Of a stretch of DNA of 64,000 nucleotides, positions 46,841 through 64,000 are shown piece by piece. A program made the position numbers and the translations under genes. Source of the DNA: Cyanobacteria bacterium auto_48_18 (GTDB lineage: Bacteria; Cyanobacteriota; Vampirovibrionia; Obscuribacterales; Obscuribacteraceae); assembly GCA_036170915.1 (NCBI GenBank), contig JAVHQC010000029.1, positions 64,001 through 128,000 on the forward strand, read 5' to 3'. The first letter of the stretch is position 1. Each line of letters begins with the position of its first letter. Below the pieces are notes generated by a model. That model did not search any database, was not told the DNA's origin, and saw only the letters and a list, made by a program, of their open reading frames with translations.

Positions 46841-48109
46841 ATGAGCGACGATCAATCACCTTACGCCGTACTTCAGATACCAGATTACAGGCTTTTGCTG
46901 ATCAGCCGGCTGATGGTAACAGTGGCGGTGCAGGTGCAAGGCATCGCCGTGGGTTGGCAAATTTATGCAATAACCAATAACGCACTATTTCTTGGCCTGG
47001 CGGGCCTGGCCGAAGCTCTACCGGCAATTGGCGTGGCACTTTATGCCGGGCACATCGCCGATATCGTCGACCGTCGCAAAATAGTACTTTTCTCAGTAGC
47101 TACTTTAGTTGCCAGCATGGCTATCATCACCGCTTGCTCGTTCAGCAGTGCGAACAATTCCACTTTGCTCACCTGTCTATTTGTTGTCATCGCCCTCTCT
47201 GGTGTTGCTCGTGGATTCTATGGCCCGGCCATCTTCGGCATCGTTTCAGACATCGTGCCCCGGCCGCTGCTCGGTAATGCAGCGGCATGGAACAGCACAG
47301 CCTGGCAAGCCTCAGCTGTGGCCGGCCCCATTCTCGGTGGCATACTTTACTCGCATGTGCATGCAGCCAACACTTATTTATTTTCCACATTATTACTGGT
47401 GGCTGCATTTATCAGTTTTTGCCAGGTCAAGTCGCGCACTGTGCTGATTAAAAGTAAATACGAAAGCGTCTTTGACAATATAAAAGAAGGTCTTGTCTTT
47501 GTCTTCTCTAACCAGATTGTTTTAGGAGCAATGGCTTTAGACCTTTTCGCCGTGCTCTTTGGCGGTGCCGTGGCATTGTTGCCAATTTTTGCTAAAGAAG
47601 TTTTTCACTGCGGGCCGGAAGTTTTGGGCGTGTTGCGAGCGGCCCCATCAATCGGTTCGGTGATTACGGCCGTGATACTCACACACAAACCAATTACTCA
47701 CAATTCAGGCAAAATCTTTATGGCGTCTGCCGCAGGATTCGGACTGTGTATGATTGCCTTTGGCCTTTCCACCAATCTTTATCTTTCGGTAGCGCTCCTG
47801 GCCGTAAGCGGCGCCCTTGACGGCATAAGCGTTTGGGTGAGAAGCACAATTTTCCAACTAGTCACTCCCAATGAAATGAAAGGACGAGTCTCGGCGGTGA
47901 ACAATATGTTCATCGGCTCTTCCAACGAAATTGGTGAATTCGAATCTGGAGTAACGGCTAAGTATATGGGCCTTGTACCCTCTGTTGTTTTCGGCGGAAT
48001 TATGACACTGCTGGTAGTGGCCGTCACCAGCGTGCGCGCTCCTAAATTGCGCCGGCTGCATGTGCATGACCTGTACAAAGAACAGAGCGTTAGAATGGCT
48101 CCGCATTAA
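46841..48109 (+). CDS. MFS transporter (EntS/H+ antiporter-like)
   Basis: GHIADIVDRRK, LDLFAVLFGGA and GRVSAVN...SNEIGEFESG. Confidence 0.9.
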   Translation: MSDDQSPYAVLQIPDYRLLLISRLMVTVAVQVQGIAVGWQIYAITNNALFLGLAGLAEALPAIGVALYAGHIADIVDRRKIVLFSVATLVASMAIITACSFSSANNSTLLTCLFVVIALSGVARGFYGPAIFGIVSDIVPRPLLGNAAAWNSTAWQASAVAGPILGGILYSHVHAANTYLFSTLLLVAAFISFCQVKSRTVLIKSKYESVFDNIKEGLVFVFSNQIVLGAMALDLFAVLFGGAVALLPIFAKEVFHCGPEVLGVLRAAPSIGSVITAVILTHKPITHNSGKIFMASAAGFGLCMIAFGLSTNLYLSVALLAVSGALDGISVWVRSTIFQLVTPNEMKGRVSAVNNMFIGSSNEIGEFESGVTAKYMGLVPSVVFGGIMTLLVVAVTSVRAPKLRRLHVHDLYKEQSVRMAPH

Positions 48110-49424
48110 GTTTTTTGATTTCGCTGGCGCGCATGAAGTAGTAAACAAGGGCGGCACAAATCCATGCTTCCACTGAACAAATGCCTACACACCATGACTC
48201 TAAACCTGGTATCACTCCAGAGGTGGCAATGCCGACAAAAATGCCTAAATGGGCGGCAATTATGGCTGGCCATCTGACCACTGCCAACTTGTCCATGGGC
48301 ACCACTTGGGTGCTATCACCGGCCAATTTGAATTGTCTTTTTATGACAAACTCTTCAATAATCATGATTACAGTCATGGTGGGAATAATGACGCAATTGA
48401 GCGATGCAATAGACTGCAGCGACTGACTGGACCCAGCCTGGGCCAGCCAGGCGGCAAAGGCAGACGAGATTCCGGCCAGGCAAACCACAGCCAACTTGTG
48501 AGGAATTTTCTTCAAATTTTCAATGGCATTGATCATGCCATACATGTTCGAATCATTTGCCGCACAATAGCTGGCAATCAAAACCAGGGCAGCGAAAATT
48601 GCCACTCCACCAAAAGAGTAGACATTCATAAAATTGGTAGCCTCAATATAATCGCTGATGCCGGACAACCTTGCAACCATCCAACCAGTGGTGGGAAAAA
48701 CAACTTCGCCCACCAGCAAAGCAATAAATAGTGAGGCCGTCAGGTGCTTCTTGTTGGGTTTGCTGTAACGCCAGTAATCAGCCTCATTACCCCAGACAGC
48801 AAAACCAATGACGAAACTAGAACAAATGGTCAGGGCAGAGGTGAATGAGATTGATGAAGGAGCAGACCAGACTTGTGGCGAAACTGACGGCACCACTTTA
48901 AAAAAAGTGTAGCCTACCCATAGCACCAAAAGCGGTGCAGCAAAATACCGGGCAAAGTTGGCCACGCCCTTGAAACCGAAAAAATTATTGACGGCCATAG
49001 CCATAGATAACAAAGCCGAGAACATGGGTACAGGCAGCATCACGTGAAAGAGACCTTTCAATGCGTCAGCCAATAACACCGCATCGAGCGCGTACCAGGC
49101 CGACATTAACCAGATGGCGTGAAATGACACCAGCCATGTGCCGTAACGGCCGAAGACCTGACGCGTCAAGAGTGTATAGGTAAGGCCGCTGCGCACTCCT
49201 AACCAGGCTGCCGGCACCGAATAAATTAGTAAGAGCAAACAACTAAGCAGCGAACATATCACCACTTGAAATAATGTTAGACCTTGTTTGTACCACTGAA
49301 AACCAATAAGAACTGTGGGAAAACCGGTGACCATGGATATCCACAAAAGCGTCATAGTGAGCGGCCCTCGCCTCTCACCAAGCGGCACCGACTGATGGGT
49401 ATAGCCGCTGCTTACATCGCTCAA
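48090..49424 (-). CDS. NCS1 family (cytosine permease-like) transporter
   Basis: VPLGERR, GLTYTLLTRQVFG and ADYWRY; about 12 TM segments. Confidence 0.82.
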   Translation of the reverse strand: MSDVSSGYTHQSVPLGERRGPLTMTLLWISMVTGFPTVLIGFQWYKQGLTLFQVVICSLLSCLLLLIYSVPAAWLGVRSGLTYTLLTRQVFGRYGTWLVSFHAIWLMSAWYALDAVLLADALKGLFHVMLPVPMFSALLSMAMAVNNFFGFKGVANFARYFAAPLLVLWVGYTFFKVVPSVSPQVWSAPSSISFTSALTICSSFVIGFAVWGNEADYWRYSKPNKKHLTASLFIALLVGEVVFPTTGWMVARLSGISDYIEATNFMNVYSFGGVAIFAALVLIASYCAANDSNMYGMINAIENLKKIPHKLAVVCLAGISSAFAAWLAQAGSSQSLQSIASLNCVIIPTMTVIMIIEEFVIKRQFKLAGDSTQVVPMDKLAVVRWPAIIAAHLGIFVGIATSGVIPGLESWCVGICSVEAWICAALVYYFMRASEIKKLNAEPF

Positions 49425-49425
49425 C

Positions 49426-50145
49426 TTATTTCCTCAACATCAAAGACTGCAAAAGCATTTTTGCTTCAGGCCATTCGTGTTCCAGCATTCGATACCAGGC
49501 AGTGTCGCGATTGCGGCCCTTAACGATAAAATGACTTTCTTGTATACCTTCAAATTTAAATCCCATGCGTAAGGCCGCTTTTCTTGAGCGTTCATTTAAA
49601 GCATCACACTTCCACTCGATTCTTCTGTAGCCAAGCGAAAATGCATGGTCAAGCAAAAGATAAGTGGCTTCAAGATTGGCATTGGTGCCTTGCACAACTG
49701 GGCTGTACCAGATGTTTCCCAGTTCAATTTTCAAATGAGCAGGAAAATTATTCATATAGTTAACCACGCCTACTTGCCGGTTTGACGCTTTATCAAAGAC
49801 ACAAAAACATAAACCATTGTCGGCTTGAACCTGAGCAAATAAAAAAGCAGCTAGTTTGCAGCTGGTGGGGAAAGGCCCGGCCGACATGTATTTCCAGATT
49901 AACTGATCAGGGTCATAAGCCGGTACAGCTTTGCCGTCGCCCGTGGCAACAATAGGATCACCGTTAGAAAGGGAAAACAAAGTGGCGTTATCTCGCTGCA
50001 AATCAATGGGCTCGAGCCTGACAATTTCTCCGTCTAGAGTGATTGCAGTTGGTTTAGTAGGTAAATCGACTATGCGCGCCAGAGTTTCAGTGGCCAGTTG
50101 ATCGCCAATCTTTGTCTCATTTTCTGGGTTAGTTTCAAACAGCAT
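49426..50145 (-). CDS. GNAT N-acetyltransferase (RimJ/RimL-like)
   Basis: IELGNIWY, LGYRRIEWKCDALNERS and KGRNRDTAWY. Confidence 0.92.
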   Translation of the reverse strand: MLFETNPENETKIGDQLATETLARIVDLPTKPTAITLDGEIVRLEPIDLQRDNATLFSLSNGDPIVATGDGKAVPAYDPDQLIWKYMSAGPFPTSCKLAAFLFAQVQADNGLCFCVFDKASNRQVGVVNYMNNFPAHLKIELGNIWYSPVVQGTNANLEATYLLLDHAFSLGYRRIEWKCDALNERSRKAALRMGFKFEGIQESHFIVKGRNRDTAWYRMLEHEWPEAKMLLQSLMLRK

Positions 50146-51001: not shown

Positions 51002-51771
51002 CATGCTCGCATTCGATATGCCAATTTGCGAAACCGAAGTGAGACGTCAAAAACTGATGTCATAAATTCGAATTTTGTAGGCTGAAAATTTTCACACGTC
51101 TTCAATTCCGTCTACACACTTTCTGTAATTGCTACTGTGTCTTGCTGGTATGAGTTCCGGTGCTACTGTTACCAGCTGCGGTTTCTATCCTCAATTCGCC
51201 AGCCCATGAAATAGTCATGTCGATAGCTAAAGCGCGAATGTGATTTGAATCAAGTGCCGGTCGACTGACTATTTGATAAAGTTGTCGGTGTTGGAGCGAA
51301 ATGGCTCGACCATATCTTTGTTAGAAATACTGGTCGGAAAATTTTTACCCAATTTGGTCCGTTTAGAATTGCCATTGCTTAGTCTCTAATTCCTATCTGA
51401 CTTCTATTTCGAGCATAGCAAACTCACATATTTGATAGAACCAAAAGTGGTGCGCGTAGTATTTCGATTTTACGATCAAGTCCGGAAAACGATGAGCCGA
51501 CAGTTATACAGACAGTAGAATTAAGAGATTTCTAATGTCCGTTGCTGAGCCGTTACGAAGCGTTCCAGCGAGGGCAAAATTTTAGATATGGCCCCTTGCT
51601 GCTGTCACTTGCGAATTATTTTCAAGTCTCTAGTAAAACGCCTCAGGTAACCCGGTAGATCATTCGCAGGTATTCGAGGTCACACAGGCGCGGGCCCAAA
51701 AACTTATTGACTAACTTTTAGCTATTCGGTACTACGGTCTTTCTGAGTCGCAGTGCTGATTGAGGAGCACA

Positions 51772-53166
51772 GTGAGTGATTATCGTCGGCAACTTTTAAG
51801 TTGCTTTGGACAAACACGTATTTTGAGATTGGGGCCACCAAAGTGGCTTACGCTGCTTTGGTCATTGATTTTTTGTGGAGTGTTTGCGCTACCGGCCATG
51901 GCAACCACGGCACCAACGATCACGCCAGGCACAGGCGTTTACTCTACTGTGCGTCCTACGGCTACGATTACTGGAGATCCAGGAGCAGTCATACATTTCA
52001 CCACGAACGGAACCAGCCCGTCCGCTCTGAGCCCCATTTATACCGCTGCTATCCCACTGTCCGACAAGAATGTCATTAAGGCGATGGCCAGCTTGTCTGG
52101 CGTGGACAGCGCTATCACAACTGCTTATATCTTGAACGACCCTTCAAGTCTTCCCGTTCCGCGATCGGGATTGCAGCTGTGGTTACAGGGTGATTTAGGC
52201 CCTATAGTATCAGGCACAAATGTTACGCAGTGGAGCGATCTCTCTGGCGCCACTAACAATGCAACTCAGGGCACCATGGCTAATCAGCCGACTCTTCTGA
52301 CAAATGCCTTGCATGGATCAAGTGCTGTCAACTTCAATGGCACAAGTTCATATCTTACCCTGACGTCAGGGCTAAATGATCTGAGTGCTGGCACTTCACT
52401 TTACGCGGTGATTAGTCCGAACACGCCGACCGGAGCCAAGACACTCTACACAAGTGGGGCGGCCGGTGTCACTGATATGGTGAGCGTGCAGACCAATGGC
52501 ACCACTGCAACGGCTAACTTTAACAACGGGGCGACTGCAAGCAACATTGCTTCCGCCGCTGCAGCACTGGCGACTTTAAAGTACCAGGAGCTTGGTGTCG
52601 TCCACAACGGCGCTGCCTCTGCAACTATGGACGTCAATGCAGCTCCTGTGAAGACAGGAGCCGTGCAGAATTTGAACACGGTAAGTCGCACGGTCAACAG
52701 AATCGGCACCAGTAGTGCTTTAAGCGGTTATTGGGGAGGGAAGCTGGCCGAACTACTCGTTTATTCAAGAGCTCTTTCTGCTTCTGAGCACGCCAACGTC
52801 ACCGCATATTTGGCATCGAAGTATCAATTGAATTTCAACGCTACAACCCCGGCCCCGACTATAGCACCGGCAACCAGCACCTTGCTAGAACCAGGGCAAG
52901 TGGCCATATCAGCCAATCCGTCGGCCGAAGTGCGGGTGACGCGTGATGGCACGAACCCTACCATCAGCTCACCTTTGTACACCGGCCCGTTTACTGCATT
53001 TCACACTCAAACAATCAAAGCGATTGCAGTATATGCCACCGGCACCAGTGCCATATCGACATCCACATTGACTCTGAATTCGACAAAATATCCGGCACCA
53101 AACGCTTCGGATGCTCGGGAACTCAAAATCAACCTACAACTTCCAACAACAGGCATTGCACCATGA
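51772..53166 (+). CDS. Exported LamG/ConA-like protein flanked by two Fn3-associated (CHB_HEX_C-like) domains
   Basis: HFTTNGTSPS..SPIYT and TRDGTNPT..SPLYT repeats around GLQLWL...QWSDLSG...NQP...FNG...ELLVYSRALS; GAGGAG before GTG 51772; ATGA overlap with next gene. Confidence 0.8.
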   Translation: MSDYRRQLLSCFGQTRILRLGPPKWLTLLWSLIFCGVFALPAMATTAPTITPGTGVYSTVRPTATITGDPGAVIHFTTNGTSPSALSPIYTAAIPLSDKNVIKAMASLSGVDSAITTAYILNDPSSLPVPRSGLQLWLQGDLGPIVSGTNVTQWSDLSGATNNATQGTMANQPTLLTNALHGSSAVNFNGTSSYLTLTSGLNDLSAGTSLYAVISPNTPTGAKTLYTSGAAGVTDMVSVQTNGTTATANFNNGATASNIASAAAALATLKYQELGVVHNGAASATMDVNAAPVKTGAVQNLNTVSRTVNRIGTSSALSGYWGGKLAELLVYSRALSASEHANVTAYLASKYQLNFNATTPAPTIAPATSTLLEPGQVAISANPSAEVRVTRDGTNPTISSPLYTGPFTAFHTQTIKAIAVYATGTSAISTSTLTLNSTKYPAPNASDARELKINLQLPTTGIAP

Positions 53167-54791
53167 AGGACCTAATGCAAAGAGTAAATGCAAAGCTCAA
53201 AATGTCGCAGTTGAAGCCCGTGCCCGGAACAAACAGGCTAGCGTGCGTATGCCTGGCGGCCGTGTTTTTGCTCAGTCAGTTTACCCCAGCATTGGCGCTA
53301 GCACCAGTTACAGAACCACCTGTGGTACCACCACCACAATTAGTGGCACCGCAGCCGAAAAATGGCGTCAAAACTGGCCCACGTTCTGTAACTCAATTCA
53401 TCGCAAAAAGTGTTCTGAGTGCTAACCCAAGCGATCTTGAAATTGCCACAACACGAATCTTTTCCGAACCGCTCACTCCGGTCGGTAGCGAATTGGTAAG
53501 CGGTGAGAATCAGGCTATCGCAAGTCTTGTTCAGTCGTTAAAAGTTAAAGCCGCCCCAGAAGATGTATCAGCGCTGACGAATTTCATTTCGGCATTTCCT
53601 ACTTCTCGCTGGACACCTAGCATTGAGAGCAACCTGGCTGAGCTGTACTCGCGCACAGGCTACCTCACGCGTGCCATTGCCGGTTGGAAGGCTGTTTGGG
53701 AAAGAACAAAAACTGAAAAAGGCACCGCTCAAATAGCAGTCGCAAATCATGCCATGGCAAATCTTCTCACCACGTATGCGCGGTTGGGAATGAAAGAGGA
53801 ATTGAAAAGTCGCTTTGCCGAAATCGAAGGACGACCATTTTTTGGCAGTGATGAGACCAAGATTAATGGTGCCCACATTGGCTACTTGGACATGCTCGGA
53901 AATGAGCAGCACGCCTTCAAATGCGGCCCATACGCGATTAATACCCTTTTCAATTTAGAGAAAAACACAAAAACTCGCCACCCAATTATTGAGAAGGCTG
54001 CATCAACTGCCAAAGGCACCAATCTGCTTCAAGTGAAACAATGGGCCGATCAAGTAGGGCTGAAAATGCAGGCAGTGAAGCGCACTGCGGGCGGTGCCAT
54101 AGTGGTGCCATCAATTATGCACTGGAAATTGCAGCACTTTGCGGCCATCGTTGCCGAGAAAAACGGCAAGTATCTTCTAAAAGATCCAACATTCGATAAT
54201 GACGGAAGCATCTGGGTTTCGTCGGCGGCGTTAGATGAAGAAAGCGACGGTTACTTTTTAATTCCTACTGCAAAAGCATTACCTGCTGGTTGGCAGTTAG
54301 TCACCGATGAAGAGGCGAAGTCTGTTTGGGGTAAAGGCGGATCGCACGAGGCCGATCATAATGAGAAAGGGTGCAATGCGCCGTCTTCTGGGGCACAGAG
54401 TTGTGAGAAACCCTGTGGTATGGCGGTAGCGTCTGCTTACAGTATGCAAGCCACCTTAACTATTGCAGATAAGCCGCTTTTCTATCAGCCTCCAGTCGGG
54501 CCTGCCATCGATCAGGTTGTCACCTACGACCACCTCCAAACTAACCAACCAAGCACTTTCACATTCACGAATCTTGGGCAGAACTGGAACTTCAACTGGC
54601 TCTCTTACCTGACTGTTGACCCAATCACTTCAGTTGCCACTCTGCGCAAAATGGGTGGTGGTTCAGAGATTTATGCTCCAGACATTGTTACTGGCCTCTA
54701 CTCACCCTCTTTGATGTCACAAGCCAAACTTGTGTACATCAGCCCCGGCGTGTACCAGAGGCAAATGCCAGACGGTTCAATGCAAGTCTAA
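53163..54791 (+). CDS. N-terminal part of frameshifted RHS protein: signal region, helical domain, C39-like cysteine peptidase, start of RHS/YD region
   Basis: KCGP (Cys), WKLQHF (His) and KDP (Asp); NLGQNWNFNW RHS N-terminal pattern; ends at TAA 54789-54791 in mid-repeat. Confidence 0.82.
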   Translation: MKDLMQRVNAKLKMSQLKPVPGTNRLACVCLAAVFLLSQFTPALALAPVTEPPVVPPPQLVAPQPKNGVKTGPRSVTQFIAKSVLSANPSDLEIATTRIFSEPLTPVGSELVSGENQAIASLVQSLKVKAAPEDVSALTNFISAFPTSRWTPSIESNLAELYSRTGYLTRAIAGWKAVWERTKTEKGTAQIAVANHAMANLLTTYARLGMKEELKSRFAEIEGRPFFGSDETKINGAHIGYLDMLGNEQHAFKCGPYAINTLFNLEKNTKTRHPIIEKAASTAKGTNLLQVKQWADQVGLKMQAVKRTAGGAIVVPSIMHWKLQHFAAIVAEKNGKYLLKDPTFDNDGSIWVSSAALDEESDGYFLIPTAKALPAGWQLVTDEEAKSVWGKGGSHEADHNEKGCNAPSSGAQSCEKPCGMAVASAYSMQATLTIADKPLFYQPPVGPAIDQVVTYDHLQTNQPSTFTFTNLGQNWNFNWLSYLTVDPITSVATLRKMGGGSEIYAPDIVTGLYSPSLMSQAKLVYISPGVYQRQMPDGSMQV

Positions 54792-54826
54792 ACCAGTCAG
54801 ATGCCAGTTCGCCGCCACGTATTTTC

Positions 54827-57800
54827 ATGACCCAAGTAATTGACAAAGCGGGTAATGCTGCGCTTGTTCAGTACGACTCCAACTTCAGGCTGACCAGTCT
54901 CACTGACTCGATCGGCCAGGTTTCGACTGTAAATTACGTTTCTAATACTTTGGGAAATGTCGGCTTCTACAAAATTAGTTCCATCGTCGACCCTTTTGCA
55001 AGATCATGCTCGTTCACCTGGGATTCAACAACAACTTTACTTTTAAGCATCACCGACGTAGTTGGCTTAAAATCCCAGTTTACGTACGACCCATCTTCAT
55101 CGTTTATCACGTCGATGACCACGCCGTATGGCACTTCAAGTTTCTATAAATATGTGCCCACCTATGCCGGTCCATATCCTGCACAAGGTCTGAAAATAAC
55201 ATATCCTGACGGTACTTCTGATGTTTTAGAAAGTTTTCTCTCAGTCGAACAAATTACCTACTTCTGGGACCGACACGCTAACCAACTTTATCCCGCAGAT
55301 CCCGCTAATCAAATTTACACTCACTGCGAGCAGATGAAATGGCTGCTTGATTTCAGTACTTCACTGATGAAGCCGGTTTATCAGTATGCTATCCATCCAT
55401 TAGAAAGTGCCAGCCCTATCTATTACCGCTCTCAAGGCCAGGGTGCCAGCTCCAATTTCATCGGCACCACCAACAAGATTACTGAGGCAAAGCGCAACAT
55501 TGGTAACGCCATCACAATTGCAACAGTGGGTGGCACGGTTGTTACCGGCGACCAATTCTACCTGGGGGCCGACGGACAGGCTCAGATTTATTATTCTGTG
55601 CAGGCAGGCGACACTCTTACTTCTATTACGAGCAATCTGATTGCGCAAGTAAATTCCAACCCTGGCATGCAGGGTGTGGGCGTTACTGCTGTGCAAATTT
55701 CCCCAACATCGTTCAGTTTGCATACAGATAGCCCCCTTGTGGCGCAGTACAGATATGCGCCTTTTGGGGGCGTTGTTCTCACTATCGCTATGCGATCTCA
55801 ATCGGAGCAAACGGCCAATGTCACCATTGGCGGTACCATGACTGTCGGCGATACCGTCAACTTAGATATCGCCCTACCGTATCCCAATAATTTCTCTCAA
55901 CGCGTCACTCACACGGTCGTCGGTGGAGACACGCCTACCACTGTCGCCGCTTCAATGGCAGCAAAAATAAATGCTGACCCGCTTTTTGCTCAGTATCCCT
56001 ATGTCGGCACGTCTAGCGGGCCCGTTTTAAAGGTTTCGTCTTTTAGCGGAAAAGTCGTCGACTATGGCAGCTTCATTGGTGGATCGGGCAGCGAGTCAAT
56101 CGTTGTCTCTGATATTCGCAATGGCACCATTCAGCTTTCTACAAATAAATATAACCCCTTAGGAAAAATGACTGAGTCTGTGGACCCGGTCAATCGCAAG
56201 TTTTCCTATGTTTATGATTCAAACAACATCGATTTGCTTCAAGTAAAAGAAACGCAGAACGCTAATAATTTTCAGATGGAAGCTTGGACTTGGAATGCAA
56301 AGCACATGCCGCTCACCCACACTGATGGCTCCGGCCGTGTCAAAACTTACGTCTACAATTCGCTCCAGCAGCCCATCTCTGTCACTGATGCCAATTCGAA
56401 CGTCACGACGATGACGTATACTGGCACGTCTTCCGCCACCATTGGCGGCACTGTCACCGCCGGCAATGTGCTCACAATTACTGTATTTGACACTGGACTG
56501 GCTGGAGGTCAGAAGGCAGTAAATTACACGGTTATCGCCGGGAACACACTAACGACCATTGCCACCGGATTAAGAAATGCCATCAATGCAGACTCAAGCT
56601 TGCAGGCAATAGGAGTTACCGCCACATCAGCTGCGGCCGTGATTACATTGAAATCAAATTCGGTAAACGTGACTACCTACGCTCAATCTGTGAGCGGCGG
56701 TGCGACTGCAACTATTGCTTTGGGAGCAAACAGATTTGGCTATCTGACCAAAATAGATGGCCCACTTGCTGGCAGCCAAGACGTCACCACAATTTCTTAC
56801 GACGGATTCGGCAGAGTGTTCTCCGTTTCGAATTCCACAGGCTATACCAAAACTTTCAGCTATGACAATATGAATCGCCGTATCAGAACAACTCATCCCG
56901 ATAACACTTTTGAACAAACTGTCTGGAGTCGTCTTGACCCGGTGATGACAAAAGACAGAATTGGCAGATGGTCTCAAACTGCTTTTGACTCCATGGATCA
57001 AGTTGCTTTCGATATCGACTCGCTGGGCCGTAAAACTCAATATACCTGGTGCTCTTGCGGGTCAATCTTAACTTTGACCGACCCCGCGAACAACACAACC
57101 AGTTGGGGCCATGACCTTCAAGGCAGAACTACTTCCAAGACCTATGCCAACTCGACAGCAATAAATTATGCATACGAACCTTACGGCAGCAATTTGCGCT
57201 CGAGAACTGACGCCTTGAACCAAATTACAAATTATCTCTATTACCCGGATGATAAAATTTTCCAGACCAGTTACAAAAATGCTGTCAATCCAACTGCGTC
57301 GACGACAACTGCGTGGGACTCAAATTACGATCGGGTCAAAAGTATTCAGAAAAATGACTGGGGTACGATTGCTTACACTTATAATCCATATATTTTGCCG
57401 CTTGGCACTCCCACTACTGGCGGTGGCATGCTGCAGGTCGTACACAATGACAGGATGGCAAATTCAGACATAAGCTTCGTTTATGATAATTTGGGCCGAA
57501 CTACCAACCGCTCAATTAATGGCGCCGCAAATTCAAATTCTTGGACCTTCGATGCCATGAGCAGAGTAACTGGCGAGACTAATGCGTTAGGCAGCTTCGC
57601 CTATGCTTATGTAGACAATACTGCGGGTTCTTCTAAAGGCAGTACGCGCTTAGCGTCCGTTACTTATCCAAACAGTCAAGTGACTAAATACAGCTGGTAT
57701 CCAGCAATTGGGGATGAGCGCCTGCAACAAATTGCCAATTTAAAAACCAGCAGCGGTCCAACCATTTCTCAATTTAGCCATGTTTATAATCCAGCTGGAG

Positions 57801-60553
57801 AAATGACCCAATGGAACCAGCTGCAAGACAATAAGAGCGTCAATTACAGGCTGGGCTATGATCAGGCCGGCCAACTTACAGGCTCGCAAGCAAGCCCTGG
57901 CCAACCTTCAGCGAGTTATATCGGTCAAAATTATTTTGCCTATGATGTTGCCGCTAATCGCACCGCTGTGCAGCAAAATAGCGTCAATAGAGTTAGATTT
58001 GGAGGCACGGTCACCACTGGCAATGCTTTAACGATAACTGTCAAAGATTCGGCGTTAACAGGCGGACAAAAAGCCCTAGTTTATACGGTCGTTGGCGGAG
58101 ACACCTTATCGACGATCGCGACTAAATTTGCTGCGCTCATTACCGCCGATACAGATATGCAGGCACTCGGTGTCAATGCTTCGGCCAATGGGCCGATGAT
58201 GAGCATCAAATCTGCATCGCCAAATATCACTACATACTCTCAATCCACCAGCGGCGGTGCCACCACTACCATTGCTTTAGGCGTCACCGGCAATTTTGTT
58301 GAAAATGCGGTAATTGGTGGCACCAAGACCACAGGAAATATAATCACAATAACGGTGAGTGATGCTGCTTTAGCGGGCGGACAAACAGCCATTAATTACA
58401 CCGTTTTAGCCAGCGACAACCTGACCACGATGGCTACAGGCCTTAAAAACGCGATAAATGCAAATGCTGGCCTCACTGCAGCCGGAGTAACTGCGACTTC
58501 GGCCGGAACTGCGATTACAGTTAAATCAACATCTGCCAACGCAACCACTTACTCTCAATCAACAAGTGCTGGCGCCACTGCCACAATTTCGCTTTCGATC
58601 AATCAAAACGGTCCGCAGACAATCGCACTATCGGGGACAAAGACCACCGGCGATACCATTACAATTACGGTTTATGATGCAGGTCTCGCTGGCGGTTTGA
58701 AAGCAGTGACCTACACCGTGCTCGCCGGCGACACATTGACCAGCATTGCGACAGGGTTGGCGGCTGCGCTGACAGCAGATTCAGCTCTGCAAGGAATTGG
58801 AGTCAGTGCCACAGCAGCAGCGACCGTGGTCACGCTACAGTCCAACTCGATAAATCAAACTATGCTTCGCGAAACCACAAGCGCAACTGCTACCGAACTT
58901 ATCTCAATAAATATTCCAGCCAATGGTGTTCAAACCGCTGTTATCGGGGGAACAAAGACCACCGGTGACGTGGTAACTATCACCACATATGATGCTGCTC
59001 TCGGTGGGGGTACGCAGGCCGTAAATTACACAGTCTTGTCTGGCGATACTCTAACTTCTATTGCTACTGGGCTCGCTGCCGCAATTACAGCGAATGCAAG
59101 TTTGTCTGAAATTGGCGTCTCTGCGACCTCTTCTTCGACCGTAGTCAACGTAAAATCAACTTCGATTAACAACACGACTTATGCAAAATCGACCAGCGGT
59201 GGTGCCACTGAAACAATTACGCTTGCCCGAGTAATGACTGTTGGCCAATATGGATACAATAATGTTAACGAGCTAACTAGCATTACGGCTGGCGGCGCCA
59301 CAAGATTTCAAGGAACTACAAACAAGCCATTAAAATCAGCGACGGTAAATAGTCAGCCAGCGACCCTCAACTGGACGGAAAGTTTCACTGGCAATGCCGT
59401 GTTAAGCAATGGCGCAAATAATGTGCCGGTTAGTGCTACAGATGGTGCAAACAATGTCAAAACACACAATTATCAAATTCCAATTGCAGGGCCGGGAGGC
59501 TCGACCCTAACGTTTGATGCCAATGGCAATATGACGAATCATGGAGCAAATTTGTATGCTTGGGATGTTGAGAACCGGTTGATTAAAATTACATATCCAG
59601 GAACCGGAAATTATAGTCAATTTCTCTATGATGCTACGGGAGTTGTTGGCCAGGTTACTGAAACTATTGCAAGTAGTCTCAGCAGCACGAAGCAATTTAT
59701 TCGCTGCAATTCGACAATCTGTGAAGAGCGCAGCGCAACTAGCACTTTGACAAAGCATTTTTTTGAAAGCGGGCAAACTTTAAGCGGCGCAGTTTATTTT
59801 TACACTTTGGACCATACTGGCTCTGTAAGGGCGATGACAGACAACTCTGCCGCAGTGCAGGCTCAATATGATTATGGTCTGTACGGCCAAGCGACCAAAA
59901 TTTCCGGTGCCCTTGATGCAGATTTTCAGTATGCCAGATACTACTCACATCAGCCAAGCCAGCTTAGCCTTACGCTTTACCGAGCTTACAACCCCGCTCT
60001 TGCGCGGTGGATCAATCGCGACCCCATACGTGAGCTGGCGAATATCAATCTCTACTGTTATGTCCATAACAGGCCCCTTAATTACGTTGATCCCCTGGGA
60101 TTAGGTGAATTTCAATATGTGGGATCAGGAACATTTAATAGTAAGGCAAAGGGCATAATCGATAAACTGAAAAAGTGTCCAGCCATGAAACCAGTCTTTA
60201 AGAACATCGCCGACGGACCATTGAACGTTATGGTTGGTCCCGCAGAGCCGGGCTATATGCCAAATACGGAACTTGACCCGGCATCAGGTCTTGTTATAAA
60301 CCTTGATTTTTACGTTGACGTAACAGGTCATGCAGGCTCCATAATTGCCGGACCTGATATTCAAGCAGCTCATGAGTTAGGCCATGCTGAGGATATTGAA
60401 CGCAATAGGAACTCAAGGGCTGATGACAAGAAAAACAGAGCTAGGTGTGAAAAACATTGTGTCGAATTAGAAGATGCAGTTCGAGCATGGACGGGAGCGC
60501 CCGGCGAGCCACGAAGAAGTTACTCAAATGCGCAAGGAATGACTTATCCATGA
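54827..60553 (+). CDS. C-terminal part of RHS/YD-repeat polymorphic toxin with HExxH metalloprotease tip
   Basis: YD repeats, RHS core (DHTGSVR, RAYNP..ARWINRDP, NLYCY, PLNYVDPLGL), then HELGH; frame is open upstream of the ATG to at least 54791. Confidence 0.92.
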   Translation: MTQVIDKAGNAALVQYDSNFRLTSLTDSIGQVSTVNYVSNTLGNVGFYKISSIVDPFARSCSFTWDSTTTLLLSITDVVGLKSQFTYDPSSSFITSMTTPYGTSSFYKYVPTYAGPYPAQGLKITYPDGTSDVLESFLSVEQITYFWDRHANQLYPADPANQIYTHCEQMKWLLDFSTSLMKPVYQYAIHPLESASPIYYRSQGQGASSNFIGTTNKITEAKRNIGNAITIATVGGTVVTGDQFYLGADGQAQIYYSVQAGDTLTSITSNLIAQVNSNPGMQGVGVTAVQISPTSFSLHTDSPLVAQYRYAPFGGVVLTIAMRSQSEQTANVTIGGTMTVGDTVNLDIALPYPNNFSQRVTHTVVGGDTPTTVAASMAAKINADPLFAQYPYVGTSSGPVLKVSSFSGKVVDYGSFIGGSGSESIVVSDIRNGTIQLSTNKYNPLGKMTESVDPVNRKFSYVYDSNNIDLLQVKETQNANNFQMEAWTWNAKHMPLTHTDGSGRVKTYVYNSLQQPISVTDANSNVTTMTYTGTSSATIGGTVTAGNVLTITVFDTGLAGGQKAVNYTVIAGNTLTTIATGLRNAINADSSLQAIGVTATSAAAVITLKSNSVNVTTYAQSVSGGATATIALGANRFGYLTKIDGPLAGSQDVTTISYDGFGRVFSVSNSTGYTKTFSYDNMNRRIRTTHPDNTFEQTVWSRLDPVMTKDRIGRWSQTAFDSMDQVAFDIDSLGRKTQYTWCSCGSILTLTDPANNTTSWGHDLQGRTTSKTYANSTAINYAYEPYGSNLRSRTDALNQITNYLYYPDDKIFQTSYKNAVNPTASTTTAWDSNYDRVKSIQKNDWGTIAYTYNPYILPLGTPTTGGGMLQVVHNDRMANSDISFVYDNLGRTTNRSINGAANSNSWTFDAMSRVTGETNALGSFAYAYVDNTAGSSKGSTRLASVTYPNSQVTKYSWYPAIGDERLQQIANLKTSSGPTISQFSHVYNPAGEMTQWNQLQDNKSVNYRLGYDQAGQLTGSQASPGQPSASYIGQNYFAYDVAANRTAVQQNSVNRVRFGGTVTTGNALTITVKDSALTGGQKALVYTVVGGDTLSTIATKFAALITADTDMQALGVNASANGPMMSIKSASPNITTYSQSTSGGATTTIALGVTGNFVENAVIGGTKTTGNIITITVSDAALAGGQTAINYTVLASDNLTTMATGLKNAINANAGLTAAGVTATSAGTAITVKSTSANATTYSQSTSAGATATISLSINQNGPQTIALSGTKTTGDTITITVYDAGLAGGLKAVTYTVLAGDTLTSIATGLAAALTADSALQGIGVSATAAATVVTLQSNSINQTMLRETTSATATELISINIPANGVQTAVIGGTKTTGDVVTITTYDAALGGGTQAVNYTVLSGDTLTSIATGLAAAITANASLSEIGVSATSSSTVVNVKSTSINNTTYAKSTSGGATETITLARVMTVGQYGYNNVNELTSITAGGATRFQGTTNKPLKSATVNSQPATLNWTESFTGNAVLSNGANNVPVSATDGANNVKTHNYQIPIAGPGGSTLTFDANGNMTNHGANLYAWDVENRLIKITYPGTGNYSQFLYDATGVVGQVTETIASSLSSTKQFIRCNSTICEERSATSTLTKHFFESGQTLSGAVYFYTLDHTGSVRAMTDNSAAVQAQYDYGLYGQATKISGALDADFQYARYYSHQPSQLSLTLYRAYNPALARWINRDPIRELANINLYCYVHNRPLNYVDPLGLGEFQYVGSGTFNSKAKGIIDKLKKCPAMKPVFKNIADGPLNVMVGPAEPGYMPNTELDPASGLVINLDFYVDVTGHAGSIIAGPDIQAAHELGHAEDIERNRNSRADDKKNRARCEKHCVELEDAVRAWTGAPGEPRRSYSNAQGMTYP
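57990..59230 (+). repeat. Four tandem ~105-aa protein repeats inside the RHS gene (three more at ~55515-56110 and ~56432-56725)
   Basis: GGTxTTG..ITIT..D..L.GG..A..YTV..GDTL..IA...A.AI.A......GV.AT unit; boundaries approximate. Confidence 0.85.
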
Positions 60554-61542
60554 AGTTACGCGTCTACTTTTTGATACTTCTAATTATGATTAGTTTGCAA
60601 AAATTCAATGCAATCTCTAAACCAATGTCGGGACAATTGAAGTTGCAGTATGGGGATTTACGGCCGTTTCTTATCGGTATCAGTCCACTCAATTATTTCG
60701 CAAGAGACAAAGAAACAATGCCCGCGGTAGCCAAATTAGCAAAAAAAATGGGCTATACCAATGTTAGTTTTTGTGGCGTTTTTCTTACGGCTGATCCCAA
60801 TTCAATCTTCATTCTACTCTCAGATGATTTGCATAAAGTTTCTAACGAACGATCGCTCTTACTGTTTTCAATTAACCGGAAATCTGGCAGCTCAAAATAT
60901 GTGCGCTCATTTACGTACAGACTGATACGCACCGTAGCTTTTGCTAATGAACTAAGTAGATTTGATCGGTTTTCTTTTCAAAAGAGTATGAATTACTCCT
61001 CTTCCAAAAAAAACAACTTATTAATCTCTGAGTCCATATTGGATTCTGCACTTCGCAGCAATCGCGAATTTAACGATGTGATGCGCTTCAAAGGCTGCAT
61101 ACCATACAAAGATGGACGAATGATATATTATCTAGAAACTGCTTTCCTATATGCTAAGCCGGTGGCTAAGAGACGTCTGTACGTTTCGGATAAGAGCAAT
61201 AAATCTATTGAATTTTGTTGTGAGTTCGATGAATCAATGAATATTGATGTCATGAATTCGGTTCTAAATTCCAATACCCTTGAGCAACTCCCAAAGCATA
61301 GTTTTCTCGAGTTGATTAAAGCACCAAAATGTCGCCTTTCTGACATTGACCCTAGACTAGTAGGCGGGGCTGCTGTATATGCGGAAATACGATTAAAGTT
61401 TCCATGTAGCGATCCTGACGTTCGAGGTTGGAAGCATGGACCACTATTGATAACTCTTTATTCTCTTAAGTCCTATGATCGCTGTGCTTTTTTTATGACA
61501 AACAAAGGACGAACAAAGCTCGAAGCTGTGTGGCTTAGATAG
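60550..61542 (+). CDS. Hypothetical exported protein, candidate immunity protein
   Basis: ATG 60550 overlaps the RHS stop (ATGA); N-terminal MKLRVYFLILLIMISL; visibly AT-rich. Confidence 0.7.
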   Translation: MKLRVYFLILLIMISLQKFNAISKPMSGQLKLQYGDLRPFLIGISPLNYFARDKETMPAVAKLAKKMGYTNVSFCGVFLTADPNSIFILLSDDLHKVSNERSLLLFSINRKSGSSKYVRSFTYRLIRTVAFANELSRFDRFSFQKSMNYSSSKKNNLLISESILDSALRSNREFNDVMRFKGCIPYKDGRMIYYLETAFLYAKPVAKRRLYVSDKSNKSIEFCCEFDESMNIDVMNSVLNSNTLEQLPKHSFLELIKAPKCRLSDIDPRLVGGAAVYAEIRLKFPCSDPDVRGWKHGPLLITLYSLKSYDRCAFFMTNKGRTKLEAVWLR

Positions 61543-61756: not shown

Positions 61757-64000
61757 TCATTTCGAGATAATTGTGCTCGCGGCAATGCGCTCGGCATTTT
61801 CTTTCAGCCACCGTTGTGCACCTTCCGCATTTGAAAATTCACCCTCGCGCTGTGCTTCGCGAGCCGCTTCAAGCACGGTTTTAAATTGTGGACCAGGCTT
61901 CATATTGATAGCCAACAACATATTGCCATTAACAATCGGCTTCTCACCCAGCTTGCCTGATTGCTTTAAGTCTTCGAGTTTTTGCAAGAGAAAATCGCGG
62001 CGAGATTTATCAGAGTCTGGTTTTTTTGTGCCCGTCGCATCAGCGTGCTGAATTTCAATTAGATCCATGATGTCAGGCCGCTCTAAAAGAGCAGTGAGCT
62101 TACCTGGTCGTAAGCTTTGCACTTCATGCATAATCATATGCAGACGCACTAGCTCGGTTACGCGTTGTTCTTGATTGCTCGACATTTTTAAACGCCTGGC
62201 GATGTCGTGAGTTAATTCAGCACCTTTGGCGTCGTGGCCATGATTGCTGATGCCGCCATCAGGCCAGATTTTTTGCGTGGCCGGTTTACCCACATCGTGC
62301 AGGAGGCCGCCCATCATGCGTTCAAAATCACCACCGGTAAGATTCTTCAATACATATTTAGTGTGGGTCCAGACTGTTCCTTCCGGATGATGCACCGGAT
62401 CTTGCCTGCCCTTGGGCCCTCTTAGTTTATAAACTTCAGGCAGTACTTGTTTCATCAAACCAGAGTCCATCATAATTTGCATACCGCGCACCGGATTTGA
62501 TGACAGCAAGATGCCTTTGATCTCGTCCCGAATACGTTCATTTGATACGGCATGAATGCCTATGGAATTGGCTTTGATAGCAGCCAGGGTAGCCGGATCA
62601 ACTGTGAAGCCTTCGTATTTAGAAGCAAAGCGCGGCACACGCATCATGCGCAATTTGTCTTCGCTAAAGCGCAAATTAGGGTCACCCACCGCGCGAATAG
62701 TCTTGCCGGCAAGGTCGTGTTGACCACCGTAAAAGTCATAAATAGTTCCGCTAATTGGATCTTGAAACATAGCGTTAATTGTCAAATCTCGCCTGGCAGC
62801 ATCGGCCGACAGTGAAGTAACAAACTGCACTCCGTCTGGCCGGCGACCATCACTGTAAGTGCTTTCAGAGCGCAAAGTGGCGATTTCAAACTCTCGGCCG
62901 TTCACCACTACATTGATCACGCCAAAGGCTTTTCCTACCGGTATTACTTTGTAGCCCTGATCGATGAAAAGTTTTTCTACTTGATCAGGAGTGGCCGACG
63001 TGGCGATATCGTAATCTTTAGGAGTTTTGCGCATTAGCAAGTCACGCACAGCACCACCAGCGAAGACACCAATATGTTGTTTGTCTTGCAGTGTTTGCAC
63101 CAGGTGCGCACCGAGCTCGCGTTGATAGGCAGACTCAGCTTCAGCACTCAAGTCTGACTTAACTTCACCTTCTTCTAAATGTTCATTTTTCGGCTGTCCT
63201 TTTGCAGCAGGAGCAATGCCGTGATCATGATCGCCATGGAAATCTACTGCTGGTCTGAACTTGCCATTGCTGGCTTCAAAAAGAGAAAATTCCTGTTTCC
63301 AGTGTTGCTCATAAGTGAGTTGACCCACTTTCAAATTTGGTATCAGAGCCGCAAGCGATGCTACTTGCACTTCAGAAGGTTGAGAAACTTTTGTTTTGCC
63401 CAGCTCTGAATTTATTTTTGCCTCCGTGAAACGGGCATCGATCTCTTGAGTCAGTCTGGTTTCTCTAAACAATTGCCAGGCTTCAGTACTCTTACCATCT
63501 TGCAAAAGTTTGGCACTAGCCTGAAAATTCTGCTCTTGTGCGCCGTTACTTTTTTGACTTAAGTGTTTTAATTCATGACCTAGCTTTGCGGCATCAGCTC
63601 CCGCTTCCAGCTCCACTCGTTTTGTGCCGAGAGCCAGCGATTGAGGAGCATCACTCTGAATGCGTGCCCACGGATTTTCATTGACAATATTTTTAAATGT
63701 TGGCGAGGTAGCGGCGTCGCCGGCAAATTCAGTCTGCACCAGCCTATCAACTGGCACGCCGCGTCCTGTAGCCAGATTAAAATGATCGGCTGCCCGGGCC
63801 ATGGCTTTTTGACCCACAGGCAGAGCGTGACTCATTACTATTCCACCTGCAGCGGCCTTGACGAGAGTTTCGCCGTCGGCCAGTTTGCCTTCGGCAATGG
63901 CAGTCGACGTGAGAGTCTGCACGCCGCCACCAATTGCGCCTGTGGCTGTGCGGGTGAGGATGCGACCAACTAGGCCACTTTTAGCGGCCAGCATATTTCC
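61757..64000 (-). CDS. Large protein (5'-truncated) with C-terminal class II CCA-adding tRNA nucleotidyltransferase + HD domain
   Basis: GGAVRD..DYDIAT, EIATLR, RRDLTINAM, EDKLRMMR, HHPEG and LLHDVGKP; more than 290 aa of extra N-terminal sequence; frame open at the window edge. Confidence 0.9.
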   Translation of the reverse strand, partial: GNMLAAKSGLVGRILTRTATGAIGGGVQTLTSTAIAEGKLADGETLVKAAAGGIVMSHALPVGQKAMARAADHFNLATGRGVPVDRLVQTEFAGDAATSPTFKNIVNENPWARIQSDAPQSLALGTKRVELEAGADAAKLGHELKHLSQKSNGAQEQNFQASAKLLQDGKSTEAWQLFRETRLTQEIDARFTEAKINSELGKTKVSQPSEVQVASLAALIPNLKVGQLTYEQHWKQEFSLFEASNGKFRPAVDFHGDHDHGIAPAAKGQPKNEHLEEGEVKSDLSAEAESAYQRELGAHLVQTLQDKQHIGVFAGGAVRDLLMRKTPKDYDIATSATPDQVEKLFIDQGYKVIPVGKAFGVINVVVNGREFEIATLRSESTYSDGRRPDGVQFVTSLSADAARRDLTINAMFQDPISGTIYDFYGGQHDLAGKTIRAVGDPNLRFSEDKLRMMRVPRFASKYEGFTVDPATLAAIKANSIGIHAVSNERIRDEIKGILLSSNPVRGMQIMMDSGLMKQVLPEVYKLRGPKGRQDPVHHPEGTVWTHTKYVLKNLTGGDFERMMGGLLHDVGKPATQKIWPDGGISNHGHDAKGAELTHDIARRLKMSSNQEQRVTELVRLHMIMHEVQSLRPGKLTALLERPDIMDLIEIQHADATGTKKPDSDKSRRDFLLQKLEDLKQSGKLGEKPIVNGNMLLAINMKPGPQFKTVLEAAREAQREGEFSNAEGAQRWLKENAERIAASTIISK

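Follow-up and report, generated by a model that had tools for sequence, protein, structure and literature searches.

The 64,000-nt window analysed here (C29:64001-128000 of the genome of Cyanobacteria bacterium auto_48_18) ends within a long minus-strand open reading frame (ORF, 61757..64000), in which a large N-terminal module of an undescribed family is fused to a CCA-type tRNA nucleotidyltransferase. The ORF encodes 747 aa in the window and is open at the window edge, as an earlier note on this DNA had remarked; in the contig it continues for another 582 nt (C29:125757-128582, minus strand), giving a protein of 941 aa. Its third residue, M3, is probably the true start, because in our alignment this residue is invariant and is the first residue of the orthologues. 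Pfam places the PolyA_pol head at residues 507-630 (126 bits against a gathering cut-off of 23), PolyA_pol_RNAbd at residues 658-717, and HD at residues 757-849, while residues 1-490 have no Pfam match at E ≤ 1 and no NCBIfam match at E ≤ 0.1. The features of the fusion gene and of the gene block beside it are listed in Table 1.

Table 1. Features of the fusion gene and the adjacent gene block (window positions unless a contig is given; residue numbers are those of the 941-aa protein)
Feature	Position	Strand	Content or basis
Payload, complete class II CCA-type tRNA nucleotidyltransferase with HD domain	61757..63148	-	residues 479-941 plus stop; Pfam, NCBIfam, PDB alignment, motifs
PolyA_pol head	62693-63064	-	Pfam
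RNA-binding region	62432-62611	-	Pfam
HD domain	62036-62314	-	Pfam
Disordered His/Asp-rich linker	63149..63244	-	residues 447-478; predicted local distance difference test (pLDDT) score <50; predicted release site, with putative cleavage
Zincin-like domain of the N-terminal module	63245..63727	-	residues 286-446; three short strands, HExxH helix, long helix with E380
Gly/Ala-rich helical bundle, part within the window	63728..64000	-	residues 195-285; core of the module is residues ~20-285
Residues 1-194	C29:128001-128582, beyond the window	-	contig sequence
GGAVRD motif	63041-63058	-	motif search
DYD motif	63008-63016	-	motif search
Flexible loop RSESTYSDGRRPD	62834-62872	-	motif search
RRD motif	62786-62794	-	motif search
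EDKLR motif	62648-62662	-	motif search
LHDVGK motif	62285-62302	-	motif search
HELKH motif	63563-63577	-	motif search
QEIDAR motif, holding E380	63431-63448	-	motif search
Four-ORF block	51760-61542	+	LamG/CHB_HEX, 468 aa; C39-like peptidase, 542 aa; RHS, 1908 aa; 361-aa ORF

The payload keeps motifs A (GGxVRD...DxD), B (RRD) and D (EDxxR), which we take to be catalytic, and the flexible loop, which is presumably needed for A addition. Its head, flexible loop included, is colinear with solved CCA-adding enzymes (6ibp_A, E = 1.9e-44; 1miv_A, E = 2e-38), and CCA addition on tRNA is its predicted activity. The earlier note had read a complete class II nucleotidyltransferase with DxD, RRD, EDxxR, loop and HD motifs here, and every one of these motifs was recovered where it had been placed. 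The NCBIfam equivalog cut-offs, on the other side, are all missed (PRK13299, 234.5 bits vs. 290; TIGR02692, 226.4 bits vs. 438.8).

A profile search identified three PolyA_pol genes in this genome, the fusion included. The second encodes an 876-aa DHH-CBS-CBS-nucleotidyltransferase (C29:291671-294301, minus strand), which spans the NCBI A-adding model from end to end at 563 bits, by far its best match and below the curated cut-off. The third encodes a 495-aa HD-type enzyme (C6:215399-216886, plus strand) in which motifs A, B, and D are present and the loop before motif B is shortened. A shortened flexible loop is a mark of CC-adding enzymes, and a split CC/A arrangement for the tRNA 3' end is known from cyanobacteria; the 495-aa protein is a probable CC-adding enzyme. 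The trio of fusion, A-adding type, and CC type occurs in 13 of the 15 genomes of the genus; the fusion is missing from the other two, whose completeness is 83% and 77%. Judged from these sequences, the fused gene is a third, accessory CCA-type enzyme and not the housekeeping one. The earlier note had set the fusion apart from housekeeping CCA enzymes and had proposed looking for a stand-alone cca gene; the A-adding and CC-type genes bear it out on this point.

The module preceding this enzyme belongs to a multi-copy family. An exhaustive HMMER search with residues 1-490 (E ≤ 1e-3) retrieved 262 cluster representatives, 78 of them at E ≤ 1e-30. The module is N-terminal in all 171 proteins examined (start at residue 15 in the median and 145 at most), with nothing upstream of it, and in 142 of the 171 it is followed by between 200 and more than 1000 residues. 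A profile restricted to the module detected it in 85 of 107 Obscuribacterales genomes, at 1-15 copies each, and in none of 400 other genomes sampled from the phylum. When 28 loci from a species-level genome collection were sorted by record label, 20 were labelled Obscuribacter, Obscuribacterales, Obscuribacteraceae or Melainabacteria, three were labelled Cyanobacteria of some kind, and four were labelled "bacterium" only; the remaining locus, labelled Flavobacterium, lies in a metagenome-assembled genome (MAG) with Obscuribacter synteny that is probably mis-binned. The module has no match in PHROGs at E ≤ 0.1 and none in a PDB sequence profile search at E ≤ 1, and PADLOC at E ≤ 0.1 returned only a weak Cas10 HD match within the payload. 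Kinship with phage or LPD "polyvalent" proteins was considered and rejected, as the best ESM Atlas score (0.87) is under the reliable range and none of 83 viral-contig pattern matches proved to be a relative. Neither this module nor a CCA enzyme as a carried payload was found described in the literature covered, which lies outside subscription journals. By its sequence, the N-terminal module is an undescribed family made up of a helical bundle and a zincin-like domain.

The AlphaFold model built with the family alignment is confident (pLDDT 80.5; predicted template modelling score, pTM, 0.70) and shows a long helix (residues 20-76), a poorly conserved loop, a helical bundle (107-271), and three short strands. 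After these come the HExxH helix (331-345) and a long helix with E380 (365-393); the linker (447-478) is disordered. Residues 100-285 are modelled at pLDDT ~85-92, and residues 270-450, when modelled alone, reach pLDDT 91.4 and pTM 0.87. The HELKH...QEIDAR segment that the earlier note had picked out in this frame, with HELKH at exactly the place given there, corresponds to H336, E337, H340, and E380. This combination of HExxH and downstream Glu is a conserved family feature, kept in 101 of the 128 members that span those columns, and E380 is kept in 126 of 129. The full module is present in 120 of the 171 proteins, and another 22, which include dCTP-deaminase-like (DCD), M20, LRR, and TPR types, have the helical part alone with the payload directly after it. 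Since these 22 proteins carry no more than the helical part, the bundle is best regarded as the constant core and the zincin-like domain as a frequent addition. The earlier note had described Gly/Ala-rich hydrophobic helices; the composition holds (39% Ala+Gly over residues 100-260), but the hydrophobicity is only moderate and not of transmembrane grade, the highest 19-residue Kyte-Doolittle mean being 1.24, below the usual transmembrane threshold.

Structural comparison gave no significant neighbour for either domain. Neither the whole module nor the zincin-like domain had a Foldseek match in the PDB at E ≤ 1e-3 (best E for the latter 0.36). In the VIA wide search, in which Z < 8 is noise for helical bundles, the best neighbour of the bundle was Tim22 (6lo8_A; Z 7.5, root-mean-square deviation, rmsd, 6.4 over 117 residues). 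Small complex I subunits and ECF S-components came next, and all of these are at noise level. The zincin-like domain has its best structural neighbours in BlaR1 (8exp_A; Z 5.6, rmsd 4.7 over 133 residues) and PprI (Z 4.8), and many more of its listed neighbours have HExxH (lugdulysin, lethal factor, M1 peptidases, minigluzincins, and ArdC), likewise all at noise level. No Pfam or NCBIfam peptidase model matched this domain, and because it has no significant fold match we call it zincin-like on the grounds of its motif and topology.

The linker between module and payload varies in length and sequence among the orthologues (alignment columns ~640-700). In CCA-type members it is His/Asp-rich, with HGDHDHG at 63218-63238 here and longer HDHD runs in orthologues, and such a linker may bind metal or sense pH. 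At the other end of the gene, outside the window, the orthologues share a conserved leader of ~70 nt before the start codon (TTCCCCATTGTG.GCCTGG...AGGG.ATG), which could fold back on itself and cover the ribosome-binding site. The upstream leader has no Rfam match at E ≤ 1, and promoter-like and terminator-like sites upstream occur only at the chance rate.

The C-termini that follow the module are diverse. Pfam was run on 90 module-bearing representatives, with family calls at E ≤ 1e-4. Eleven are of the CCA type, four are dCTP-deaminase-like, three carry a GlgX-type isoamylase, three an HD domain only, and two HEAT repeats (both below the Pfam cut-off); GH15, M20 peptidase, DUF2252, PRTase-CE, LRR, and TPR account for one each, and 61 have no family. 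One further GlgX-type member lies outside this tally. Strict clustering of the 106 members in which the module is complete separates 26 C-terminal classes, so that the module heads at least 26 unrelated C-termini. Nineteen of the classes are singletons; the two largest have 31 members (HEAT/HD-like, 1000-2000 aa) and 29 members (CCA). Among the classes without a family, PDB sequence searches with the C-termini of four proteins returned nothing below E 0.003, and NCBIfam on 32 representatives gave only weak GlnD/HD-like matches, in 6 of the 32. Mapped onto the module tree, the five main payload classes require 9 changes, where 4 would be the minimum and shuffling gives 36.6 on average; the payloads therefore mostly follow the descent of the module, with a few swaps.

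The paralogues with the same N-terminus and other C-termini that the earlier note had hoped to find are thus numerous, and two of them are in this genome. One (C32:41698-43770, minus strand; 690 aa) has a full module (34% identity) and a cysteine-free C-terminus of ~260 aa, which has no Pfam or NCBIfam match and which ESM Atlas groups with GNAT acetyltransferases (score 0.95, a lead only). The other (C22:442461-444278, minus strand; 605 aa, 5 cysteines) has a weak match to the helical part (E 3.7e-6), followed by a patatin domain (45 bits). The effector-like family is real and undescribed.

A second line of evidence comes from amino acid composition. The 941-aa fusion protein contains no cysteine. 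Among 27 fused CCA domains, 25 have none and two have one; of 136 free CCA homologues, not one is cysteine-free (median 4, range 1-7). The 51 members of the two closest free clades have 1-7 each, and the other two nucleotidyltransferases of this genome have 9 and 7. Even motif A reflects this difference, reading GGAVRD in the fusion and GGCVRD in the free forms read. The same holds for other payloads: the fused GlgX domains (~716 aa) contain 0, 1, 1, and 3 cysteines, compared with 13 and 10 in the two free GlgX homologues of this genome, and the DCD, M20, GH15, DUF2252, and TPR members, together with the paralogue on C32, contain 0-1 in 645-1017 residues. Over the whole module family (n = 171) the median cysteine content is 0.13%, with 68 proteins having none, vs. 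a median of 1.00% and 4.9% with none among ORFs of at least 400 aa in this genome (n = 1293). The cysteine purge is thus a sequence signature that divides the fused payloads from their free cytoplasmic homologues.

Cysteine avoidance is known also from proteins that cross membranes unfolded. The exclusion of cysteine has been described as an adaptation of exported proteins to oxidising surroundings (PMC2823432). The purge, which the earlier note had not remarked, favours export or translocation of the payload and strengthens the suggestion of that note that the fusion is a delivered effector.

The origin of the payload was traced with a tree of 74 CCA domains, rooted on the CC-type enzyme of this genome, a phylogeny for which the earlier note had called. 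The 16 fused CCA domains form one clade (Shimodaira-Hasegawa-like approximate likelihood ratio test, SH-aLRT, 96), within which two short database fragments also sit, and this clade is nested in a group with SH-aLRT 100 alongside two clades of free accessory enzymes, of 445-464 aa and 496-540 aa, respectively. The latter clade includes proteins named CCA tRNA nucleotidyltransferase of Candidatus Obscuribacter. Because the fused domains are a single clade nested among free enzymes, an accessory free CCA enzyme was captured once by the module. The accessory group as a whole is present in 48 of the 107 genomes of the order, and by open-frame length it comprises 23 entries of at least 900 aa, 4 of 747-809 aa, and 24 of at most 601 aa. 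Pairwise identity, taken between the same proteins, is ~85% in the CCA domain and ~60-64% in the module, and this stronger conservation of the CCA domain indicates that the enzyme is under selection.

The fusion itself is no assembly artefact. Eighteen other database proteins are built in this way, with 36-88% identity in their N-terminal halves, and so are the proteins of 13 independent loci in named public MAGs, one of them a 6.69-Mb chromosome, where an ORF of 917-985 aa encodes the module and then the CCA domain. One contig from the probable source run crosses the fusion junction at a depth of 13; two soil read runs yielded only pieces of 151-271 nt, and no RNA data set was listed as containing the sequence. 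Read support of the kind that the earlier note had asked for comes from the probable source run, and the fusion recurs in independent assemblies. In one related genome (C99:51382-56709) a tandem pair of fused CCA-type genes has open frames of 1299 aa and 1262 aa. One assembly has the fusion apparently split by a frameshift within the CCA domain (649 aa + 296 aa, on the same 69254-nt contig), which is either a sequencing error or a pseudogene.

Twelve of the 13 loci share their neighbours. One flank holds genes for a divergent phosphodiesterase, a TPR protein, an AmmeMemoRadiSam protein, and KdsC; the opposite flank usually has a set of pyridoxal-phosphate (PLP)-decarboxylase, GNAT, permease, and DUF3592 genes. 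In this genome the GNAT gene (49426-50145) and the permease gene (48090-49424) are present, and the decarboxylase gene and a small convergent gene are missing; where these two stand in the 12 related loci lies the four-ORF block of Table 1. Its RHS protein has LysM-like repeats and a C-terminal AAHELGHAE motif, and its 361-aa ORF has no family and sits in a stretch of 38-43% guanine-plus-cytosine content. The block looks like a recent insertion. As it is absent from the 12 orthologous loci, the adjacency of RHS is a local matter of this genome, and the link to the RHS locus drawn in the earlier note is not supported. The fused CCA gene is monocistronic, with a divergent neighbour on one side and a convergent one on the other.

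Taking these observations together, we put at roughly one in two the probability that the N-terminal module exports the CCA enzyme, or passes it across a membrane, and frees it by a cut in the linker. Four things favour export and release: the pattern of the family, the placing of HExxH ahead of the payload, the purge of cysteine, and the degree to which the enzyme is conserved. If the fusion is indeed exported or handed to other cells, the family would form a novel set of effectors. The helical bundle would be the carrier or translocation part, and the lack of cysteine would reflect an oxidising space or an unfolded step during translocation. The zincin-like domain would then act as a self-releasing peptidase that cuts the disordered linker, and the released enzyme would work on tRNA 3' ends in a recipient cell, by CCA addition, repair, or over-extension. 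A bolder extension of this proposal is that Obscuribacterales possess a hitherto unseen protein-delivery device in which a cysteine-free helical carrier with a built-in zincin release peptidase moves ordinary cytoplasmic enzymes into other cells (CCA-adding/repair, glycogen-debranching, and dCTP-deaminase-like enzymes, peptidases, and dozens of unknown domains), that a housekeeping tRNA 3'-end enzyme has become an injected effector which rewrites or marks the tRNA pool of the recipient, and that these large-genome relatives of cyanobacteria live by attacking or manipulating their neighbours. This extension, with its list of cargoes, is one joint claim, which we advance tentatively and consider rather less probable than not.

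Several observations weigh against export. The fusion lacks a signal peptide, searches down to E ≤ 1 revealed none of the known trafficking or pre-toxin domains (PAAR, RHS, LXG, TPS, PT-TG, and similar), and the fold matches of both module domains are within the noise range. No same-strand neighbour is conserved across the subfamilies as an immunity gene or chaperone would be, and each module subfamily sits in its own conserved, housekeeping-like synteny. As for known machines, neither TssC, the sheath protein of the type VI secretion system (T6SS), nor a phage-type sheath was found in any of the 107 genomes of the order, and neither FHIPEP nor WXG100 was found in this genome (86% complete); by these markers no T6SS, eCIS, T3SS, or T7SS was recovered that could carry the module proteins. 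The VirB4 model PF03135 has no match in this genome and matches in 3 of the 107 of the order. A VirB4-like AAA_10 ORF (947 aa) and a VirD4-like ORF (1026 aa) do stand next to each other, ~2 kb apart, at C33:191291-195416, and VirD4-like genes of a weak-scoring type are present in 103 of the 107 genomes. A type IV-like machine may thus be available in this genome, and carriage of the module proteins by it is a possibility. Being near-universal in the order, however, the VirD4-like genes do not track the module, and neither co-location nor co-variation of the two was found. Known signals of the type IV secretion system (T4SS) are moreover C-terminal, and the constant part here is N-terminal. The accessory CCA enzyme occurs once per genome, fused or free (a single match in 45 of the 48 genomes), and three free examples begin at the catalytic head with no module gene within their ~1.5-kb flanks; such free forms imply that the enzyme functions in the cytoplasm as well, like any ordinary protein there. 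Nor is it obvious that a CCA-adding or glycogen-debranching enzyme would harm a recipient. The cysteine signature, too, has its exceptions: cysteines are kept in class c3, in some of the long class, in the members of the LRR and PRTase-CE types, and in the patatin protein of this genome. As the fused CCA domains form one clade, their loss of cysteine may go back to a single event that was inherited and maintained.

Some of these same observations speak for an intracellular role, in which the module would hold the enzymes at the producer's own membrane, or inactive, until a signal (phage attack, toxin damage, or starvation, for example) prompts the peptidase to free them, and the CCA/HD enzyme would repair the producer's own tRNA 3' ends. 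One accessory enzyme per genome, free or fused, would suit such a role, as would syntenic, vertically inherited loci without immunity genes, and the best, if weak, fold matches of the module are membrane helical bundles and BlaR1. Several of the payload types (dCTP-deaminase-like, HD, PRTase-CE, patatin, and nucleotidyltransferases) are also found as self-acting effectors in anti-phage systems. Phage CCA-adding enzymes have been described as tRNA repair tools in conflicts (PMC7824862), and toxins that cut the acceptor end of tRNA exist (PMC9071432). The proposal nevertheless leaves the cysteine purge relative to free cytoplasmic homologues without a reason, and the hydropathy of the module is under transmembrane level. 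Payloads such as GlgX, GH15, M20, LRR, and TPR fit poorly with defence, and PADLOC found nothing in the module. We regard an intracellular tether or pro-enzyme as doubtful, but as the most serious competitor to export and release.

It is also conceivable that the zincin-like peptidase is the business end of these proteins and that the C-terminal domains only aim at, or sense, tRNA, glycogen, or nucleotides. The constant part of a family is often its catalytic part, and HExxH with the downstream Glu is kept in the large majority of members noted above. It is, however, lost in 27 of the 128 members, 22 of the 171 proteins have a payload and no zincin-like domain at all, and the CCA domain, in which every catalytic motif is intact, shows stronger conservation than the module. 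This makes a peptidase with mere targeting domains unlikely.

Less likely still is a classic interbacterial polymorphic toxin, that is, a secreted carrier with a toxic tRNA-modifying nucleotidyltransferase and a cognate immunity protein, as the earlier note had suggested. A constant N-terminus with variable C-termini, an HExxH domain ahead of the payload, the cysteine purge, and an RHS toxin gene nearby all recall such systems. At the orthologous locus, however, the C-terminus is constant, the CCA payload being found at 12 syntenic loci and in 13 of the 15 genomes of the genus; the gene is monocistronic with no adjacent immunity candidate, the RHS block is an insertion that the syntenic loci lack, and there is no Pfam pre-toxin domain and no T6SS. 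Membership in the polymorphic toxins is accordingly not supported. Finally, a housekeeping CCA enzyme with a lineage-specific extension, or an assembly artefact, would agree with the intact catalytic motifs and is very improbable, given the A-adding and CC-type enzymes already present, the detection of the accessory clade in just 48 of the 107 genomes, and the recurrence of the fusion in many independent assemblies and in the junction contig.

Comparison with known systems shows partial likenesses in each case. With class II CCA-adding enzymes bearing an HD domain (6ibp, 1miv; the E. coli Cca type), the payload shares a colinear head, motifs A, B, and D, the loop, and the HD domain; it differs in its 478-residue foreign N-terminal region, its lack of cysteine, its scores below the NCBIfam equivalog cut-offs, and its place in an order-specific accessory clade beside a separate CC/A pair. 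Polymorphic toxin systems, reportedly set out by Zhang et al. in 2012, likewise combine a constant N-terminal part, a peptidase-like domain, a variable C-terminal enzyme, and many copies per genome. In the present family, in contrast, no known trafficking or pre-toxin domain, immunity genes, or strain-level cassette swapping were found, and the payloads are mostly metabolic or without known family, not known toxins. The PE/PPE proteins of mycobacteria are lineage-restricted and multi-copy, and their Ala/Gly-rich helical N-terminal domain serves as an export handle that heads varied C-termini, including enzymes. The module resembles them in its restriction to one lineage, its copy number, its Ala/Gly-rich helices, and its varied C-termini, but no sequence or fold match to them and no WXG100 gene in this genome was found, and the module has the zincin-like domain in addition.

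MARTX and large clostridial toxins are carriers with a helical membrane-interacting region and a built-in cysteine protease that frees their enzyme domains. A carrier with a protease, here a predicted one, and enzyme domains is common to both, and cysteine is avoided as in the passengers of autotransporters, which are cysteine-poor. The differences lie in the HExxH motif in place of a cysteine protease, the other domain order, and the lack of detected homology. MenT toxins add nucleotides to tRNA 3' ends and are small proteins of an unrelated fold family with a paired antitoxin; the fusion shares with them the predicted nucleotide addition at the tRNA 3' end but has a full CCA/HD enzyme, and no partner gene was found for it. 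In the same class of bacteria, T4SS delivery of hydrolytic enzymes has been proposed for Vampirovibrio, and T4SS effectors have been predicted for Vampirovibrio chlorellavorus (PMC4451040); VirD4-like genes are near-universal in Obscuribacterales. The module was not found outside Obscuribacterales among the 400 other genomes sampled from the phylum.

To our knowledge, no carrier-type protein had been seen before with a complete CCA-adding/repair enzyme for its payload. The protein belongs to a well-delimited and testable family of 262 representatives, with as many as 15 genes in a genome and no assigned function for most C-termini, in the Obscuribacterales, which are widespread, uncultured, non-photosynthetic relatives of cyanobacteria whose lifestyle is little known. 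Should the proteins act within the producer, they would represent a new way to tether and release enzymes. If export is confirmed, they would point to a novel way in which diderm bacteria secrete or translocate proteins, and to effectors of a new class that are directed at tRNA.

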